From: Mobula hypostoma
Taxonomy: Eukaryota
Length of the DNA stretch: 64,000 bases
Direction: 5' to 3'
Assembly (NCBI RefSeq): GCF_963921235.1
Contig: NC_086107.1
Location: 109,866,001-109,930,000 of the forward strand
Made by a program: the position numbers and the translations under genes. Positions 29,478 through 63,479 of this stretch are shown here, in pieces. The notes under the pieces are model-generated. The model was given only the letters and a program-made list of their open reading frames with translations, was not told the DNA's origin and did no database searches. Within the stretch, counting starts at the first letter, position 1; every line of letters begins with the position of its first letter.

Positions 29478-32101
29478 CGTCTGGAACTTCGTTAATCCTT
29501 GCCTTGCCACAACTTCCACAATGTCCAGACAGGGATAGCTTACAGATAGTGTGCAGTCAGCCCAGGCTAGTGAGGTCTTTCAAGAAAGGTCTTTGAAGAG
29601 CATGTATATTAGGGGACCCAAGCCGTTTGGTATATCCAGCCAGGTAACATGCACTTTCAGGATCTTGTAACTTCTGCCTGATGGGAGAGGGGAGAAGAAT
29701 GAATGTCTGAGTTGGGTGGGTCTTAGATTATGCTGGTTGCTTTACTGAGGCAGCAAGAAGTGCAGATTTATTGGATATAAATATATTTATTAATCAGATA
29801 TACAAAGTATACAGTGAAAGGCATTTAAAAAATGCTGGTGAACGCAGCAAGCCAGGCAGCATCTATAGGAAGAGGTACAGTCGACGTTTCGGACCGAGAT
29901 TTATACCTCTTCCTCTAGATGCTGCCTGGCCTGCTGCGTTCACCAGCAATTTTTATGTGTGTTGCTTGAAATTCCAGCATCTGGAGATTTCCTCGTGTTA
30001 GTGAAATGCATTGTTTACCTTAAGATACAGAAACCTGAAAGCATGTACTAACAGGCTGAAAGACAGCTTACCAAGACAAGATTATGATGTAAATAAAGGA
30101 TTCTACTTGCTATTGGTCAACTACTTGACTAACGCTGAAGTATTATTGGCCCTTAGCGTGTAGATCCTATTGGCGTTTAATACAAGTATACCGCAGTGTG
30201 ATTGGTGATTCATTATGTAAATGAGAAGTCTGAACCTACACAAAGTTACCAAGCTTTCACTCAACATCAGTAAGACCAAAGAACTGATCATGAACTTCAG
30301 AACGGGTAAGATGAGGGAGCACACACAGCAGTCCTCATAGAGGGATCAGAAGTGGAAAGAGTGTGCAAATTTAAATTCCTGGGTGTCAATACCAGGACCC
30401 AACGTATTGATGCAGCTGCAAAGAAGGCACAACAGCGCCTGTACTTCATTAGGAATTTGAGGAGATTTGGTTTGTCACCTAAAACACTTAAAAACTTCTA
30501 CAGATGTACCGTGGAGAACATTCTGACTGGCTGCATCACCGTCCAGTACTGGGGGCGGAGTGCCATCGCACAGGATTGAAATAAACTGCAGAGAGTTGTA
30601 AAATTAGTCAGATCCATTATGGGTATGAACCTCTGTAGTATCCAGGACCTCTTCAAGAAGCAATACCTACAGACTTCCTACAATTCATGTTTTTTTTCCT
30701 ATTATTATGCTGCAAAGACAACAAGTTTCACAATGTATGCAGGTAACATTATACTGGATTCTGGTCAGTATCTGTGTACAACTGGTCAATTTCAGTATAA
30801 AAATAGCATTTCTTTGTTCAAGCTTTGGAACAGTGTGGGTGACAGGGGCCATGCTGTTTTCCTTGTGCACAAATACAGTAAATAAAGTGCAGCTGAGAAA
30901 CAAGTGCAAGTTTTCAGAGTCCAGTTAATCGCGACGACACCCTATCATTCTCATTCTCATTTAGTTACATTACTGTTACGCCCGCACATAACAAGAATGA
31001 CAACATAGTATGATTAAACAATCTTGCTTGGTCATGTTAGTACAGCACATGCTGGACAACTTACAGTGCAGGAGCAATGAATTGTGCCTATCAAGACAAA
31101 AATACGCAACTCAAAGACCCGCACCCAAAAGAGAGTGAGCCCTCCACGCATAGGAGGTTCAGTCGATTCACTGCATGGTCGCACGTGCACTTGCCACATT
31201 CTCGTAAGCGATCCAATACAGCTCGACTGCCTCTTGCAAACTCTTTTTTCCTTTCAACACTTTCCCCTCATCTGTTTCTAACCTACATGCATAGATTTTC
31301 CAATTCTCCAAAATAAACACGGTATCCACATCCCCATTCTCTTAGACGACAAACGTAAGAGATTCTGCAGATGCTGGAAATCAACGGGAACGCGCACAAA
31401 ATACTGGAAGAACTTAGCAGGTCAAACAGCATATAAGGCAGGGGTTTTCCAACCTTGACTATGCCATGGAGCCTTACGGTTAACCGGGGAAGGGTTCGTG
31501 GCCCCAGGTTAGGAACCCCGATTCTAAGGAGACGGTTCCAAGTCAACTTGCCAGGCCGAGACACTTCATCAGAACTGGAAAGGAATGAGGAAGACATCAG
31601 AATAAAAAAAAGTGAGGGGAGGGGAAGGAGGACCAGCTAGAAGGTGATAGGTGAAACCAGGTGGGTGGGGGACATGGGATGAAGTAAGAAGCAGAGAGGT
31701 GATAGGTGGAAAAAGTAAAGGGATGAAGAATAAATCTGATAGGAGAGGAGAGTGGACCATGGGAAAAAGGAAGGGGCGCATGAAGAGGTGATAGGCAGGT
31801 ACAGGAGAGAAGGGGGAGAGCAGAGTAGGGGTAATGAAGAAGAGGGAAGAAGGGGAAAAATTAAATGACATAATTTTCCACTTTGGGTCTGATATTCTCA
31901 AAAAAAATAAATGATAAGCTAGAGGACGTAGGTAGAGTATTGCTCGACAACTGAGAGGATTAATCCAGCCCATGGGATGGCTGGTGGAACATCAGTAAGT
32001 GATTTATGCGGAAACAGGATATTCACAATGGAATACCGGTGGGGTTGCAACCAGAATTCCACAGATCCCAATTATCCAAAAAAAACACAAAATCACTAGT
32101 A

Positions 32102-36365: not shown

Positions 36366-37497
36366 TGTTGCAATAATTGAAAGTTAAAAGTTCAAATGTA
36401 TTATCAAAGGTTGTATACAATATACAAACTTGAGATCCATCGTCTTGCAGCACTCACAAAACAAAAACACAATAGAATTCACAATAAACCACACTCAACA
36501 AATGTGACTGCAGCTCGAAGGTGCAAATAACAGACGAGAGAAAATCTACAGATGCTGGAAATCCGACCAACACACACACAATGCTGAAGGAACTCAGCAG
36601 GCCAGGCAGCATCTATGGAAAAAAAGTACAGTCATTGTTTTGGGTCGAAACCCTTAGGCAACACTGATATTTCAGGCCAAAACACTTCAGCAGGACTGAT
36701 ATTTCAGGGCAAAACTCTTTGCCCAAATAGTTTTTGAAAAAGTAAACAAAAACACAAGGAACGTGAACTGCAGAGTCCCTGAGAGTGAGTTCACAGCTGC
36801 AAAGCCTGCTAAGGCAAATGAAGGCAGTTCAGGGACAATGTAATGACTAGCGTACGTAAAAATCTTGTGCTGTGCAATTTTTTTTGCCCAGTGACAACAT
36901 GTGTGCACTGAATAATTTCTTCAATAAAAACAGTATAAATAAGCCAGTTTGAAAATCGGCAGACAAGTCATCACAAACTTCATGTTGTCAACACCGTCCT
37001 CATCAGAAAGCGGAAAAGGAAATGTGATTGTGTACGATTGTGAAACTAAACACGCCAACGAGGTGGAGGGTGACAATCTTTTGTGCACAGTTTAAATCTT
37101 TTTTGTCAGCGCATTACCCAAGACTCCTGCACCTCCCACCCGATGGTAGTAGCAAGAAGAGAAGGAACCAGTCAAACAGGCAGACAGCGCTGAACACCTG
37201 TTCATTTTCCATTCTCTGCTTCGACGATGTTGAATCATGTCTGATGCAGTAATGGAGCCAACTGTGGGTTCGTCTTTCGCCGTCAGCCTCGTTGACCTAC
37301 ACTGTTTCCCCACACAGTCTCCATCCTCCCAGACACTGACAACACACGATCGGCCAGAGCAACTTAGCGGTTCGAGCAGCATCTGTGCGAGGAAGGGAAC
37401 TGTCGATATTTTGGGGGGCAACCCTGCATCTACTCCCAGTTACTATCGATTCCATGGCTTTGTCCCACCTCCCTCTCAATCCACTGGACTGAATTCC

Positions 37498-45664: not shown

Positions 45665-45989
45665 TTACAGCGGGGGCAAAGGCCGGTTGTAAAACTCCCA
45701 GAACATCTCGTCCTTCTTGTCGATGCAATTAGTGGTTATTTCACTTCCCGCTCTGCCGCCAGGCGCCACTGCCACCTTGGGCTTCGCGACAGGCCGCTTT
45801 GTCCTTGGGACGGTTGTCGGCAGCTTCGCAGTGACTTTCTTCGGCGCTTCGGGCTGCCCTGGCCGAGCCGTGGCTGCACGCCGGCGGGTCCGGGAGATGA
45901 ACTCAGGCCAGTCCCTCGTTAGCTTCGGCTGCTCTTCCAGGTACACTTGGACAACCTCTGCTGGGCCAGCAACGTGTCAGTCCGGGCAC
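45665..45989 (-). CDS. TEX33: probable TEX33-like terminal exon with apparent frameshift
   Basis: Acceptor ctctctgctgtttaaAG. The phase-1 frame gives GARTDTLLAQQRLSK-CTWKSSRS* (stop 45919-45921). A shifted frame continues YLEEQPKLTRDWPEF...DEMFWEFYNRPLPPL* to 45665. The sequence is GC/CpG-rich and non-repetitive. Confidence 0.5.
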
Positions 45990-46794
45990 CTTTAAACAGC
46001 AGAGAGGGCAGCGTGACCGAGGAATAGCGTCTATCCCTGTCATCAGCCAAGTTGGTTATGTACGTACGGAACAAGGGCAACAGAAGATCAAACGCTTTTA
46101 CAGAGTTGTGCCAGCTACAGTACATCCTGGGCAACAAAATGATGGAGGAACTCAGCAGGCCAGGCAGCATCTATGGAGGGGAAAAAAGAGTCGGCGATTC
46201 AGGCCGAGACCCTTCATCGGGACTGGAACGGAAGGAGGAAGCAGCCAGTATGGAGGATGAGGGGAGGGGAAGGAGTGTAAGCTGGAAGGTGCGGGTCTGG
46301 GTGAGCACACAGCCAAAGAGTCAGGGGGCAGCAGAGATCACAGAGGGGGAGCAGAGAGAGGGGGTCCCATCGAGGTGAAGATTTAAACTCCTTCAGGGTA
46401 GCCATTCCTCGAAGAGTCTTCACAGTGGAGCAGCAAGTCATTAACATAAGAGATTTCTACAGCCCCCTCCCTTTCCAGTCCGTATGAAGGGCTGTCGACT
46501 GTTAATTCCCTTCGATCGATGCTGCCTGACCTGCTGAGTTCCTGCGGAATTTTGTGCGCGGTGCTCCAAATTTCCAGCGTCTCCTGTGTTTACAGCTTAC
46601 AGCGCAGGAGCGACCGACCGGGCCCGCCGAGACGAGGACGTGCGCGCTCAAAAGCCCACAAAAATAGAGAGAAGGGGCCTTCCATGTATGACAGTCACAA
46701 TCGATACGCACGTGATCCCGCATTCTCGTAACTGATCCAATACAGTTCACTGGCAAGGTGCCTCCTTGCCCAAGCTTTGCCCCCGTCGCCACAG

Positions 46795-52985: not shown

Positions 52986-54166
52986 AAGTGGAGGTTAATA
53001 GGTGGTTTATTAGTAAGGGCAAAGGTTACAGGGAGCAGACAGAGAATGGGGTTGAGAGAGACAATAATTTTGCCGTGATGGAATGGAGGAAAAGTCTCAA
53101 TGAGCCAAATAGGCTAATTTTGCTCTTATGTCTTATAAATTTACTTTGAGCTAAAGACAAGAGAGTGATTTTATTTCACTGTTTTACATCCTCAGTCGCT
53201 CTAGGACTTCTCCACTCTTTTCTCCATCTCCCCTAACGCTTTCTTGACTCTCTGGTGAATGATGTTCATCTGAACCCAGTGACCTAAAAGACGACAGATA
53301 ACTTTGCTAATATCAGGGTGCAAACTCGGAATCAAATCATCTTATCCTAACTTAACGACCAGCCCCCCCCCCGGCCCGGTTATGTGAGGGTTCCGTTTCG
53401 GAGGACGTTCCCCCGTAAGCCAATTGCTTTGCAAGTTGGAAACACTGATTTTCTAGACCTACCTATATTGTACTGTCCTGTACACACTTGCTGTAACCGT
53501 TCATTGCGTTGAATAAATAACACTACTCATAATTAAGTGATACGAGAGACCGCAGATGCAGAAATCAGGGACGTCATACAGAGCACTGGAAGAATTCGAC
53601 TGTCTATTTCCTTCCACGGATGCTGCCTGACCTGCTGAGTTTCTCCAGCATTTTCTGTGTTGCTGCCCATAATTCAGCTAATTGAATTTATGCCTTGCTG
53701 AATACCATTAAAAATGTTTATTTTTTATTATTACTAGATTGCAAAAATACAGAATTTGTGTGAAGTCTGGTTCCCATAAATTCAGGCCATTCATCACCCA
53801 GGGAGCTGCTTCCATCAAGGACATATGTACAGAAAAGGGCCAGTAACATCAGGAAGGATCCCACCCACCCTGCTCGTGGACTGTTTGTCCCACTCCCATC
53901 AGGGACAAGGCTATGTAGCATCCATGCCAGGACCAGCACAGCTCAGAGTTGTACATGGTGACATATATATACTTTGATAATAAATTTACTTTGTACTTGG
54001 AAAAACAGCAGGCGGATCAACACCTCCACCCACTAACTCCACCACTACTTCATTATTTTCTGTCAGTCACCTTATATACAGCCTAGAATCACTTTATGAA
54101 CATACGATCTATGTATATAAACTATCTTATGTATTTATACAACCCTGAGATTACAGGCATTCATAA

Positions 54167-56713: not shown

Positions 56714-59306
56714 ATTATGTGTGACAAATAAAACCAATCTCATCTCATCTACAGCCTTGTATCTCTGCTCCAGCTACGAGTGTCCACTAGAGGGAGCAAA
56801 TACTGCACGGTGTCCAGAACACACATTGGTCGCTCTTTTAACTTACCGTTCGCTTTATTGCTGGAGTTCCTCTAGCACTTTGTGTAGCAGTTTATTTATT
56901 TGTTTGTGTTTGTTGATTTACTTATGCGTCTATTTATGAGAGAGAGAGAAAGAGAAAGAAAAAATAGAAAGAGAAAGAAACAGAGGAAGAACACACAACT
57001 ATAAACGCATAAGGCATCTTATAAGCGTAGATTGATTGTGTGTCCATAAAGTGACACCAGGCTGTAAGGCTGTACGCAGTGACAGTGAGAGTAGGAATGC
57101 GATGAGGTGGAGGATAAATGCGTGGCTGAGGGATTGGAGCAGGGGGCAGGAATTCAGATTTCCGGATCATTGGGACCTCTTTTGGGGCAGGAGAGACCTG
57201 TACAAAAAGGACGGGTTGCACTTGAATCCCAGGGGGATCAATATCCTGGAGGGAGGTTTGTTAAAGCCGTTGGGGAGAGTTTAAACTAGGATTGCTGGGG
57301 GGTGGGAACCGAACTGAAGAGACTGGGGAAGAGGAGGTTGGCTCACAAATAGAGAAAGCTTGGAGACAGTGTGAGAGGGAGGATAGGCAGGTGATAGAGA
57401 AGGAACACGCTCAGACCGATGGTTTGAGATGTGTCTATTTTAATGCAAGGAGTATTATGAACAAAGCGGATGAACTTAGAGTGTGAATCAGTACTTGGAG
57501 CTATGATGTTGTGGCCATTACAGAGACTTGGATGGCTCAGAGGCAGGAATGGTTACTTCAAGCGCCAGGCTTTAGATGTTTCAGAAAGGACAGGGAGGGA
57601 GGCAAAAGAGGTGGGGGCATGGCACTGTTGATCAGAGATAGTGTCACGGCTGCAGAAAAGGGGGATGCCATGGAGGGGTTGTCTCTGTGGGTGGAAGTTA
57701 GGAACAGGAAGGGGTCAATAACTCCACGGAGTGTTTTTTATAGACAACCCAATAGTAACAGGGACATCGAGGAGCAGATAAGGAGACAGATTCTGGAAAG
57801 GTGTAATAATAACAGGGTTGCCGTGGTGGGAGAGTTTAATTTCCCAAATATCGATTGGCATGTCCCTAGAGCAAGGGGTTTAGATGGGGTGGAGTTTGTT
57901 AGGTGTATTCAGGAAGGTTTCTTGACACAATATGTAGATAAGCCTACAAGAGGAGAGGTTGTACTTGATCTGGTATTGGGGAATGAACCTGGTCAGGTGT
58001 CAGGTCTCTCAGTGGGAAAGCATTTTGGAGACAGTGATCACAATTCTATCTCCTTTACCATAGCATTGGAGAGGGATAGGAACAGACAAGTTAGGGAAAT
58101 GTTTAATTGGAGTAAGGGGAAATATGAGGCTATCAGACAGGAACTTGGAAGCATAAATTGGGAACAGATGTTCTCGGGGAAACATACGGAAGAAATGTGG
58201 CAAATGTTCAGGGGATATTTGCGTGGAGTTCTGTATAGGTACGTTCCAATGAGACGGAAAGGATGGTAGGGTACAGGAACTGTGGTGTACAAAGGCTGTT
58301 GTAAATCTAGTCAAGAAAAGAGCTTACAAAAGGTTCAGAAAACTTGGTAATGATAGAGATCTAGAAGATTATAAGGCTAGCAGGAAGGAGCTTAAGAAAG
58401 AAATTAGGAGAGTCAGAAGGGGCCATGACAAGGCCTTGGCGGACAGGATTAAGGAAAACCACAAGACATTCTACAAGTATGTGAAGAGCAAGAGGATAAG
58501 ACATGAGAGAATAGGACCAATCAAGTGTGACAGTGGGAAAGTGTCTATGGAACCGGAGGAGATGGCAGAGGTACTTATTGAATACTTTGCTTCAGTATTC
58601 ACTACAGAAAAGGATCTTGGCGATTGTAGGGATGACTTACAGCGGACTGAAAAGCTTGAGCATGTAGATATCAAGAAAGAGGATGTGCTGGAGCTTTTGA
58701 AAAGCAAGTTGGATAATCACTGAGACTGGACAAGATGTGGGAGGCGAGGGAGGAGATTGCTGAACCTCTGGTGATGATCTTTGCATCATCAGTAGGGACG
58801 GGAGAGGTTCCAGAGGGTTGCGGATATTGATCCCTTATACAAGAAAGGGAGTAGAGATTGCCCAGGAAATTATAGGCCAGTGAGTCTTATTTAAGTGGTT
58901 GGTAACTTGATGGAGAAGATCCTGAGAGGCAGGATTTATGAACATTTGGAGAGGTATAATATGATTAGGAATAGGCAACATAGCTTTGTGAAAAGCAGGT
59001 CGTGCCTTTGAGCCTGATTGAATTTTCTGAGGATGTGACTAAACACATTGATGAAGGTAGAGCAGTAGGTGTAGTGTATATGGATTTCAGCAAGACATTT
59101 GACAAGGTACCCATGCAAGGCTTATTGAGAAAGTGAGGCATGGGATCCAAGGGGACATTGCTTTGTGGATACAGAATTGCCTTGCCCACAGAAGGCAAAG
59201 AGTTGTTGTAGAAGGGTCATATTCTGCATGGAGGTCGGTCACCAGTGGTGTGCCTCAGGAGGCTGGATGAACTCAGCAGGTCAGGCAGCATCAGTCAGAA
59301 ACGATG

Positions 59307-59342
59307 AGTCGACGTTTTGGGCCGGAACCCTTCGTCAGGACT
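59307..59342 (-). ncRNA. hammerhead ribozyme copy with G12A core mutation
   Basis: AGTC-CTGACGA-A-GGGTTCCGGCCC-AAAACGTC-GACT on the minus strand; GAAA has become AAAA. Confidence 0.7.
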
Positions 59343-61588
59343 GAAGAATGAAAGATGGGGAAGGGAAGAATGCCTGTACCGTCAGTTGATAGACCAGTAA
59401 TTTGAAAGACAAAGGGGTGGGGGAGGGGAAGCATTGACGTCATAGCCCTGAAAACAATGGGTGGTAGAAGAAGGAGGCGGAACCATGAGGGAGCTGGGGG
59501 AGGGGGTAGAGTGAAATAGGGATAGAGGAAGGGAGGGGGAGGGAATTACTGGAAGTTGGAGAATTCTATGTCCATACCAAGGGGCTGGAGACTACCTAGA
59601 CGGTATATGAGGTGTTGCTCCTCCAACCTGAGTTTAGCCTCATCATGGCAGTAGAGGAGGCCATGTATGGACATATCTGAATGGGAATGGGAAGCAGAGT
59701 TGAAGTGGGTGGCTACTGGGAGATCCTGTCTGTTGTGGCGGACGGAGTGGAGGTGCTCGATGAAGCGGTCCCCCAGTCTGCGTCGGGTTTCACCGATGTA
59801 GAGGAGGCCGCACCGGGAGCACCGGATGCAATAGATGACCCCAACAGACTCACAAGTGAAGTATTGCCTCACCTGGAAGGACTGTTTGGGGCCCTGAATG
59901 GTGGCAAGAGAGGAGGTGTAGGGACAGGTGTAGCACTTACGCTTACAGGGATAAGTGCCGGGTGGGAGATCCATGGGGATAGACGTGTGGACCAGGGAGT
60001 CGCGGAGGGACCGATCCCTGCGGAAGGCTGAGAGGGGTGGAGAGGGAAAGATGTGCGTAGTGATGGGGTCCTGTTGAAGGTGGTGGAAGTTGCGGAGGAT
60101 AATGTGTTGGATCCGGAGGCTGGTGGGGTGGTAGGTGAGGACAAGGGGAACTCTGTCCCTGTTGTGGTGGCAGGAGGATGAGGTGAGGGCCGAAGTGCGG
60201 AAATGGAGGAGATGCGGGTGAGGGCATCATTGATGACAGCAGAAGGGAAACCACGATCCTTAAAGAAAGAGGACACTTGAGATGTCCTGGAACGGAAAAC
60301 CTCATCCTGGGAGCAGATGCAGCGGAGACGGAGGAACTGGGAATAGGGAATGGCATTTTTGCATGTGGTGGGGTGGGAAAAGGTATAGTCGAGGTAGTTA
60401 TGAGAGCCAGTGGGCTTGTAGAAGATGTCAGTGGACAGTCTGTCTCCAGAGATGGAGACCGAGACATCGAGAAAGGGGAGGGAAGTGTCCGAGGTGTAGC
60501 TATGGGAACTCGCATGGGACCCAGCTACGCCTGCCTCTTCGTTGGTTATGTGGAACAGTCTGTGCTCCAAACCTGTTCTGGTACTGCTCCCCAACTTTTC
60601 CTTCGGTACATTGGCGACTACATTGGTGCTGCTTCCTGCACCCATGCTGAGCTCGTCAATTTCATTGACTTTACCTCAAACTTCCATCCAGCTCTCAAAT
60701 TCACTTACTCTATCTCGGACACTTCTGTCCCTTTTCGGCCCTCACCCCATCCTCCCGCCACCACAACAGGGACAGAGCTCCCCTTGTCCTTACCTACCAC
60801 CCCACCAGCCTCCGGATCCAACACATTATCCTCCACAACTTCCGCCACCTTCAACAGGACCCACCACTAAGCACATCTTTCCCTCTCCACCCCTCTCCGC
60901 CTTCCACAGGGATCGATCCCTCCGCGACTCCCTTATCCACACGTCCCTCCCCACGGATCTCCCACCCGGCACTTATCCCTGTAAGCGTAAGTGCTACACC
61001 TGTCCCTACACCTCCTCTCTTGCCACCATTCAGGACCCCAAACAGTCCTTCCAGGTGAGGCAACACTTCACTTGTGAGTCTGTTGGGGTCATCTATTGCA
61101 TCCGGTGCTCCCGGTGCGGCCTCCTCTACATCGGTGAAACCCGACGCAGATTGGGGGACCGCTTCGTCAAACACCTCCACTCCGTCCGCCACAACAGACA
61201 GGATCTCCCAGTAGCCACCCACTTCAACTCTGCTTCCCATTCCCATTCAGATATGTCCATACATGGCCTCCTCTACTGCCATGATGAGGCTAAACTCAGG
61301 TTGGAGGAGCAACACCTCATATACCGTCTAGGTAGTCTCCAACCCCTTGGTATGAACACAGAATTCTCCAACTTCCGGTAATTCCCTCCCCCTCCCTTCC
61401 TCTATCCCTATTTCACTCTACCCCCTCCCCCAGCTCCCTCATGGTTCCGCCTCCTCCTTCTACCACCCATTGTTTTCAGGGCTATGACGTTAATGCTTCC
61501 TCTCCCCCACCCCTTTGCCTTTCAAATTACTGGTCCTTCAACTGAAGCTACAAGCATTCTTCAAATCCTTCCCCATGTTTCATTCTTC

Positions 61589-61624
61589 AGTCCTGATGAA
61601 GGGTTCCGGCCCGAAACGTCGACT
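61589..61624 (+). ncRNA. minimal type I hammerhead ribozyme (intact core) in PLE 3' region
   Basis: AGTC-CTGATGA-A-GGGT(TCCG)GCCC-GAA-ACGT-C-GACT: stem I AGTC/GACT, CUGANGA and GAAA core, stem II, loopless palindromic stem III (ACGT), GUC cleavage triplet ending at 61620. Confidence 0.85.
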
Positions 61625-63012
61625 CATCGTTTCTGACTGATGCTGCCCGACCTGCTGAGTTCATCCAGCGTACTGAAAGTGTTGTTTTGATCTTTTACAG
61701 CATCTGCAAATTATTTTGTGTGCCTCAGGAATCTGTTCTGGAACCCCCTATTCTTCGTGATTTTTGTAAGTGACCTGGATGAAGAGTGGAGGAATAGGTT
61801 AGTAAATCTGCTGATGACACAAAGGTTGGAGGTGTTGTGGATAGTGTGGAGGGCTGTCAGAGGTTACAGCGGGACATTGATAGGATGCAAAACTGGGCTG
61901 AGAAGTGGCAGATGGAGTTCAACCCAGATAAGTGTGAAGTGGTTCATTTTGGTAGGTCAAATATGATGGGTGAATATAGTATTAATGGTAAGACTCTTGG
62001 CAGTGCGGAGGATCAGAGGGATCTTGGGGTCCGAGTCTATAGGACACTCAAAGCTGCTATGCACGTTGACTCTGTGGTTAAGAAGGAATATGGTGTATTG
62101 GCCTTCATCAATTGTGGGATTGAGTTTAGGAGCCGAGAGGTAATGTTGCGGCTATATAGGACCCTGGTCAGACCTCACTTGGAGTACTGTGCTCAATTCT
62201 GGTTGCCTCACTATAGGAAGGATGTGGAAACCATAGAAAGGGTGCAGAGGAGATTTACAAGGATGTTGCCCGGATTGGGGAGCATGCCTTATGAGAATAG
62301 GTTGAGTGAACTCGGCCTTTTCTCCTTGGAGCGACGGAGGATGAGAGGTAACATGATAGAGGTGTATAAGATGATGAGAGGCATTGATCGTGTGGATAGT
62401 CAGAGGCTTTTACCCAGGGCTGAAATGGCTAGCACGAGAGGGCACAGATTTAAGGTGCTTGGAAGCAGGTAGACAGGAGATGCCAGGGTAATTTTTTTGT
62501 TAAGCACAGAGAGTGGTGAGTGCGTGGAATGGGCTGCCAGTGATGGTGTGGAGGTGGATACGATAGGGTCTTTTTGATAGATAGATATACTTTATTAATC
62601 CCGAGGGAAATTTGGTAATTTTAAGAGACTCCTGGACAGGTACATGGAGCTTAGCAAAATAGAGGGCTATGGGTAACCCTAGGTAAATTTCTAAGGTAAG
62701 GACATGTTGGGCACAGCTTTGTGGGCCGAAGGGACTGTATTGTGCTGTAGGTCTTCTATGTCTCTATAAGGCGACTGACAGGAAATAATAAAGTAATGGT
62801 GGGGTTAGTGGGTGGAGGTGAGGATCGGGGGCTGAAGAAAACTGGTGCCTTTAATTGGCTTCAGGAGGGGATGAGGAATTCTCATCGACAAGGAGAAAAG
62901 AAGATCGTTTCACCCTCCCCCTCACATCAGCTTTTCTCTGTCCGTTCCTCAGAGAGGTAACGAGCCAGGAGAGACACACACGGACAGGGAGGAATACGAG
63001 GTCACACCATAC

Positions 63013-63123
63013 CCAGATCATCGGTGGTCCTGCCGTGCCAGTGTTCCAGATCCCGTCTGAAGCGGTCGACCACTTCCTGCGTGTAGGTGGACTGCGCCTC
63101 GCTTTTCCATCTGCTCGAGAGAC
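63013..63123 (-). CDS. TEX33: TEX33/CIMIP4-like internal (penultimate) exon
   Basis: cgttAG acceptor, GTATGG donor, 111 nt, phase 1-1. (G)LSSRWKSEAQSTYTQEVVDRFRRDLEHWHGRTTDDL(G) matches the recalled TEX33 motif SYTxxV...RDxxxWHGRxTDxLG. TEX33 lies close to KCTD17 in human. Confidence 0.75.
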
Positions 63124-63479
63124 CTAACGTCAGGACAACAGAGCACCCACCTGTCAGATTCCGCTCTGTCCCGAACTCTGTCCAGTACTTCAGGGGAGCC
63201 TGAGGGGAAACCCCCTCACTCGGGGGGTGGTGACGGTGCGGAACGGGCTGCCGGCGCAGATGGTAGGTGCGAGTCCGATTACAGGATTTAAGAGAAGTTT
63301 GGATAGGTACGTGGATGGAGGGGATTTGGAGAGCTGTGTTCCCGATGCAGGTCGATGGAGGTGGGCAGAATAATAGTAGACACAGACTAGAGGGGCCGAT
63401 GGGCCTCTTTCTGCGCTTTAGTATTCTCAAGGAATCTGTGACTCTATTACAAAGTCTCCAAAATTAACATGATTTGAAA

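Follow-up and report, generated by a model that had tools for sequence, protein, structure and literature searches.

The window, i.e. the whole stretch of 64,000 nucleotides of Mobula hypostoma DNA that was analysed, contains exons of a TEX33/CIMIP4-family gene, a CR1-type LINE and, inside this LINE, an insertion of a Penelope-like element (PLE) carrying a hammerhead motif. The features of the locus are the following:

45668-45990, minus strand: second terminal TEX33-family exon (tblastn with a homolog)
53204..53287, minus strand: next TEX33-family exon, alternative terminal (tblastn with a homolog)
57085..59260, plus strand: 5' part of the host CR1-type LINE; start approximate; begins inside the ORF1 esterase, no 5' UTR
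59248..59260, plus strand: left target-site duplication, 13 bp, CR1 sequence
59261-61717, both strands: whole PLE insertion, a head-to-head inverted pair, delimited from arms, tail and flanking target duplication
59261..60493, minus strand: left arm, second copy of this PLE, inverted and truncated at its 5' end; frameshift near 60190
59307..59342, minus strand: sister hammerhead in the left arm, same sense as the TEX33-like pre-mRNA; A instead of G12 (a CpG site), C at position 7
60494..61669, plus strand: right arm, 5'-truncated Neptune-like PLE (RT fragment, linker, GIY-YIG, hammerhead)
61378..61590, plus strand: possible retained spliceosomal intron of the pseudo-LTR; the donor-like site overlaps the ORF stop and the acceptor AG would be the first two nucleotides of helix I
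61589..61624, plus strand: minimal type I hammerhead, predicted cut after C61620; fits the min-HHR consensus of PMC4209133 Fig. S3
61670..61717, plus strand: PLE tail, 48 nt, right arm only (arm comparison; repeat-family depth at 61685)
61718..61730, plus strand: right target-site duplication, 13 bp, identical to the left one, CR1 sequence
61718..62770, plus strand: 3' part of the host CR1-type LINE, which continues from the duplicated target; approximate end (high-copy depth stops near 62770)
63011..63124, minus strand: TEX33/CIMIP4-family exon, upstream of the insertion-bearing intron (PF15400, E 3.8e-9)

TEX33/CIMIP4 exons lie on both sides of the PLE insertion on the minus strand, and the insertion is therefore intronic. 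The two alternative last exons of this gene match different annotated isoforms in other rays. The 5' part of the host CR1 continues into endonuclease and RT sequences that are interrupted by many stops and frameshifts.

The insertion consists of two truncated arms that are 95% identical over ~935 bp. In the right arm, an RT core fragment (60494-60735), whose YIDD motif reads YIGD, is followed by an internal deletion of ~280 bp and then by a CX3CxxC linker and a GIY-YIG domain. The ORF, which contains one frameshift near 60859, stops at 61379-61381 and is followed by a pyrimidine-rich spacer, the hammerhead and a downstream hairpin. An autonomous PLE would have an intact ORF and direct tandem pseudo-LTRs; here, the arms are truncated, frameshifted and inverted only. 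Direct tandem non-coding units with a hammerhead in each, as found in non-LTR retrozymes, are likewise absent from 59261-61717. The insertion is a young and dead PLE copy. Its inverted left arm, its 13-bp target duplication and its one-sided 48-nt tail had been omitted from the preliminary description, which was drawn from the letters of the window.

Concerning the origin of this architecture, both nicked target strands would prime reverse transcription, one at the end of the tail and the other 48 nt inward; the truncated cDNAs made from them would then join in the middle to form the head-to-head pair. Two-strand priming would thus account for the inverted arms, the target duplication and the one-sided tail. 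The anole PLE protein was shown in vitro to extend both target strands, with two RNA start sites that define the tail (PMC11167929). The locus can be viewed as a clean genomic footprint fitting two-strand priming by a PLE.

Some other characteristics of the arms deserve mention. The ~280-bp deletion of the right arm begins ~23 bp from the inner edge of the inverted repeat (60714-60736 and 60471-60493) and enlarges the inter-arm spacer from ~220 to ~540 nt. A central deletion can stabilise a long palindrome, and the position of this one is as expected if such a stabilisation took place. A segment of 170 nt (61172-61341) does not show any difference between arms (P ~0.01 under random placement), which possibly reflects gene conversion between the inverted arms. 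At 61464, both arms carry a letter that is a minority in the family, and this weakly suggests one source template for both arms. The window also includes a miniature head-to-head insertion of two PLE 3' ends (29813-30012), whose pair at 29826-29999 is flanked by a 13-bp duplication with 1 mismatch and has a tail restricted to the plus arm. A probable older head-to-head pair of PLE 3' ends, for which no clear target duplication was found, lies at 46136-46590. On the minus strand, at 36580-36699, the 5' half of a degraded hammerhead is repeated in a short tandem duplication.

A GIY-YIG domain (PF01541) was detected in both arms by Pfam search, with an E value of 6e-5 upstream of the plus-strand hammerhead. 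A Pfam match to a spider toxin was dismissed (E 0.18, under its cut-off). The GIY-YIG domain is C-terminal and has two cysteines inside its motif, as in Neptune elements. The CX3CxxC linker ahead of it corresponds to the CX2-5CxxC linker described in Neptune and Nematis alike and absent from Penelope/Poseidon (PMC8557442). The nearest proteins are 81-83% identical and come from rays (Hypanus and Mobula), as do the homologs of the TEX33-family host gene. A more distant relative, L008, has hammerhead stems and a loop identical to those of the published Acropora digitifera Neptune example. This likeness favours a probable affiliation to Neptune over Nematis, the linker fitting both clades. Three annotated shark/ray proteins (P0001, P0005 and P0007) are gene models that include PLE remnants. 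One of them, P0005, reads through a similar hammerhead region, which suggests that the putative motif family spans sharks and rays.

The hammerhead starts 207 nt past the PLE stop codon and is preceded by a U-rich 5' flank, in the pseudo-LTR that follows the GIY-YIG ORF. Its stem I (AGUC/GACU, 61589-92 / 61621-24) comprises 4 bp and is followed by a CUGAUGA box (61593-99) and by one extra A (A61600). Stem II (GGGU/GCCC) also comprises 4 bp, with a UCCG loop, a closing U-G pair and the G10.1-C11.1 pair (G61601-C61612). GAAA is found at 61613-16 and a loopless palindromic ACGU at 61616-19; C17 corresponds to 61620, with a predicted cut at 61620|61621. The motif therefore has the CUGANGA and GAAA boxes, the NUH site and the extra nucleotide between 9 and 10.1 of PLE minimal type I hammerheads, as well as their palindromic positions 15.2-16.2 without loop III. 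It does not correspond to a canonical monomeric type I hammerhead as modelled in Rfam, its stem III having no loop and no Rfam model matching it. The preliminary description had reported exactly this fold and had interpreted it as a minimal type I hammerhead of a PLE pseudo-LTR, whose palindromic stem III works as a dimer. The letters read as claimed, an RNAmotif-type descriptor retrieves this one site, and the interpretation is supported. The same holds for its orientation: it is antisense to the TEX33-like intron, the gene having its exons on the minus strand, and sense to the host CR1, a plus-strand element.

That the motif results from a chance match to the hammerhead pattern might be argued from two results. 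None of the Rfam models, hammerheads included, matched the window at the gathering score, and a search of 61000-62200 at E<=10 returned no hammerhead, only an unrelated lncRNA model (E 0.71). Furthermore, the minimum-energy fold of the motif is unremarkable (z -0.69). Both are nevertheless expected since the motif would be unable to close stem III alone. By contrast, a structure descriptor that tolerated a helix II of 3-8 bp and 2-10 nt within stem III, run on both strands of the 64 kb, gave one match in the window (61589-61624) versus two in 300 dinucleotide shuffles, i.e. 0.007 per window. These shuffles, together with the location in a PLE pseudo-LTR and with the conservation borders and covariation described below, refute a chance match, whose probability we regard as negligible. 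Judged from its sequence, the motif genuinely belongs to the minimal type I hammerheads, as part of a Neptune-like PLE.

Conservation was examined in contigs of four public runs that matched 61300-63200 at 85% likeness. These contigs give neither strand nor RNA ends, and two runs marked 'RNA?' may be DNA. In the unique flank, organism A shows 0 differences in 428 nt and organism B 11 in 417. The summed depth of the motif exceeds that of the unique flank by four to five orders of magnitude and is ~10x that of the spacer upstream, neither value being a copy number. The PLE hammerhead family appears very abundant in rays. Many paralog contigs stop matching exactly at 61624 in all four runs, and paralog contigs begin matching at 61588 in one run. 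Hence, the conservation borders (61588/61624) are the edges of the hammerhead. Among the variant sites listed for 61300-61717, 10 have a family majority that differs from the window and none of them is in the motif. Among the contigs listed for the four runs, none bridges the tail-CR1 junction. The depth of the TEX33 exon is higher in run X16, which is at most a hint since this run is marked probably DNA.

More distant relatives were found at 79 metagenome loci. In 39 of them, the match reaches near the ORF end, and 32 of these have at least 250 nt downstream. A minimal hammerhead lies in sense orientation 100-264 nt after the stop in 6 of the 32 and in antisense orientation in none, and the descriptor has no match in the other 26. 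Helix I and II sequences of the six distant hammerheads differ and still pair through compensatory changes, and the palindrome ACGU is replaced by AUAU in three of them. The exact family pattern had 0 matches in metagenome and viral contigs, and no protein relative of the PLE was found in the viral collection. The hammerhead motif is conserved at the family level, with stems that covary in distant relatives. An absence of core conservation across genomic copies, which the preliminary description had given as grounds for abandoning its reading, is contradicted both by the borders in contigs and by the 6 of 32 distant loci.

The same description had also proposed that plus-strand transcripts could self-cleave at this site. 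This part is unsupported at the locus. In the predicted plus-strand fold of 59200-61800, all 36 nt of the motif pair with the left arm, and the duplex with this arm reaches -73.6 kcal/mol versus -10.1 for the motif alone. When the left arm is excluded, the pairing probability of stem I falls from 0.66-0.91 to <=0.01 in five of five longer contexts that include the flanks, partly because a second GACUG just downstream captures its 5' strand. The modelled active dimer (-14.7) is disfavoured relative to two folded monomers (2 x -10.1) and to an inactive co-fold (-25.3), nearest-neighbour energies being values that omit core tertiary contacts and protein help. Moreover, no tandem partner is present at the locus, and a transcript from upstream meets the inverted left arm first. 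Plus-strand read-through would therefore bury the hammerhead in a long duplex. A plus-strand transcript driven by the CR1 was also considered and rejected. The CR1 promoter sits in the 5' UTR, and this CR1 is truncated inside ORF1, broken and devoid of such a promoter of its own; its truncation and its stops make it unlikely to drive its own transcript. According to these models, there would most likely be little or no meaningful cleavage at this locus. In active tandem parents, two motifs would pair via their ACGU palindromes and by exchanging strands of stem I. Paired in this way, they would cleave slowly after GUC, probably aided by the PLE protein, as can be extrapolated from published work.

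The integrity of the plus-strand motif does not require any particular explanation. With a sequence model, 21 stretches of the window were recognised as related (12 of them being its own training set). Twelve stretches were aligned, and all 11 besides 61589-61624 are changed at one or more core or core-flanking positions, which bears out the earlier claim that this copy is the only core-intact one in the window. The C11.1-G12 CpG is altered in 10 of these 11 copies. Inspection by eye did not reveal a clear pattern of 5' truncation at the cut site among window copies. Between the two arms of the insertion, 14 of 76 CpG positions are different, as are 25 of 856 others. If the arms were identical at insertion and mutations were evenly split between them, as our estimate assumes, the neutral probability that one arm keeps all 30 essential positions is ~0.35, and that of exactly one intact arm of two is 0.46. 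The intact state of the plus-strand motif is therefore expected from the young age of the copy. Most likely, this hammerhead decays neutrally like its neighbours and selection at the locus is unneeded. Considering all these data, the best explanation (probability about 0.85) is that a genuine Neptune-like hammerhead is carried passively in a young dead insertion, most likely uncleaved and decaying neutrally.

Other explanations attribute an activity to the motif. It is possible, by analogy with D. virilis, whose 3' pseudo-LTR contains what transcription needs (PMC2377424), that the pseudo-LTR of the right arm drives plus-strand RNA that lacks the inverted arm. The motif carried by this RNA would be free, and the abundant family could supply partners in trans, so that it would be cleaved in vivo by pairing with another PLE transcript. 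The intact core fits this scenario, as do the extreme abundance of family members that share stem I ends and the weak cleavage of dimeric S. mansoni constructs (PMC4209133). However, the minimal hammerhead of S. mansoni has no activity as a monomer and low activity even in cis as a dimer (PMC4209133), and only 1 of 9 dimers of Xenopus retrozymes was cleaved (bioRxiv 10.64898/2026.07.22.740005). Moreover, the anole PLE ribozyme needs its protein, and its cut site does not coincide with RNA-seq ends in the data reported (PMC11167929). The loss of stem I with flanks (<=0.01), a co-fold in which the active dimer is not favoured and the sequestration of read-through RNA by the left arm also argue against trans cleavage, which we consider very unlikely. 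It could also be imagined that the host keeps the intact copy to trim antisense RNA of TEX33/CIMIP4, since the intact hammerhead is antisense to this gene and the broken one, with its G12A change, is sense. G12A inactivates hammerhead chemistry. However, the asymmetry between the arms is a single CpG transition, the commonest kind of change, and under neutrality no outcome is likelier than one arm intact and the other broken (0.46). In addition, at least 8 changes specific to the right arm have accumulated over the 290 nt that precede the motif, which corresponds to an ordinary decay rate. Retention by the host is therefore extremely improbable.

Another alternative is that the role of the hammerhead is mainly structural or coupled to splicing, cleavage being secondary: it would pair two templates for two-strand priming, or be switched by an intron. 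We regard it as unlikely, although several data can be put forward in its favour. In vitro, catalytic mutants did not impair insertion by the anole element, and its protein is modelled as a dimer extending both strands (PMC11167929). With regard to splicing, an intron of D. virilis Penelope ends at helix I (PMC4209133). In the right arm, pyrimidines make up 74% of the 213-nt stretch running from the ORF stop to helix I. The donor-like site at the stop is the best one in 61300-61590 (7 of 9 matches to the donor consensus), and the 3' end of the candidate intron has a pyrimidine tract and CAG, whose AG starts helix I. Two diverged copies in the window show both the donor-like site and the pyrimidine tract with CAG, and the ray gene model P0001 leaves the PLE frame exactly at the donor-like site. 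We therefore hypothesize that an intron extending from the ORF stop to helix I may be retained. On the other hand, the pairing of stem I also constrains the acceptor AG, distant relatives have no AG at helix I and most of them no GT at the stop, and no splice joint of this candidate intron is found among the 15 of 705 joints listed for the contigs of the four runs. As for a structural role, distant relatives retain the strict catalytic core, in agreement with selection for chemistry, and the 61464 variant common to both arms suggests one template source rather than two paired templates. A more speculative version, quite unlikely in our opinion, combines these ideas. The ray Neptune hammerhead would be a splice-switched RNA pairing device: splicing would rewrite stem I, the palindromic dimer would hold two templates in the protein dimer, and both nicked strands would be primed at once. 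If true, this would account for the repeated occurrence of head-to-head insertions flanked by 13-bp duplications and tailed on one side, and a single mechanism would connect the inverted architecture with the ribozyme and the retention of the intron. An intron ending at helix I, provided that it exists, would make it possible to test in a vertebrate why introns and ribozymes are both maintained in PLEs.

Passive carriage of a genuine hammerhead agrees with what is known of PLEs, and both this class of motif and the inverted architecture are already published. Among the metazoan PLE min-HHRs described by Cervera and De la Pena in 2014 (PMC4209133), the closest match is the Acropora digitifera Neptune example. 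The shared characters are the CUGANGAH box with an extra nucleotide, G10.1-C11.1, the loopless palindromic stem III, the short stem I, the U-rich 5' flank and the location behind the GIY-YIG ORF. That work also shows another minimal hammerhead, borne by the opposite strand (Fig. S4A). Such hammerheads number thousands in fish, coelacanth and frog genomes (PMC4209133). The host here is a ray, whereas the species of Fig. S3 of that paper do not include cartilaginous fish, and stem II (4 bp), known here from sequence, is shorter than in many vertebrate min-HHRs (PMC4209133).

The element resembles EN+ PLEs of the Neptune clade by its C-terminal GIY-YIG and its linker zinc-finger motif, and also by its head-to-head arms, one-end tail and short target duplication (PMC8557442, PMC3846280). 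Truncated copies in inverted orientation, a short duplication and a tail on one side only belong to the layout described for PLEs in these papers, and the tail is described in PMC11167929 too. It differs from these elements in that both arms are truncated and broken and that there is neither a direct tandem nor a 5' pseudo-LTR. Its tail (48 nt) can be compared with the 30-40 nt described, and its target duplication (13 bp) with the 8-10 bp of rotifer examples (PMC8557442, PMC3846280). As in the anole Poseidon_Ac (PMC11167929), the hammerhead lies in the pseudo-LTR; in the anole element, two priming sites define the tail and both strands are extended. However, Poseidon_Ac belongs to a different PLE clade and the copy studied here is dead. 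The ORF start of Poseidon_Ac lies within the ribozyme (PMC11167929), whereas the matching ATG, in the first hammerhead box, opens only a short frame here and was rejected as an ORF start. Non-LTR retrozymes also have type I hammerheads derived from PLE pseudo-LTRs, but they are non-coding direct tandem arrays, unlike the inverted coding remnant found here (bioRxiv 10.64898/2026.07.22.740005). These retrozymes were reported in one chondrichthyan (bioRxiv 10.64898/2026.07.22.740005). A literature search, with most subscription papers outside its reach, found no description of batoid PLE hammerheads. The documented range of PLE minimal hammerheads thus extends to batoids.

As a single copy, the hammerhead at 61589-61624 matters little. 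The likelier effect on the host comes from the 0.93-kb inverted repeat in the TEX33/CIMIP4 intron, which would form double-stranded RNA. The TEX33/CIMIP4 pre-mRNA would hold a 0.93-kb double-stranded stem (59262-61669, minus strand) ahead of the alternative terminal exons, and this stem might undergo A-to-I editing or give rise to small RNAs.
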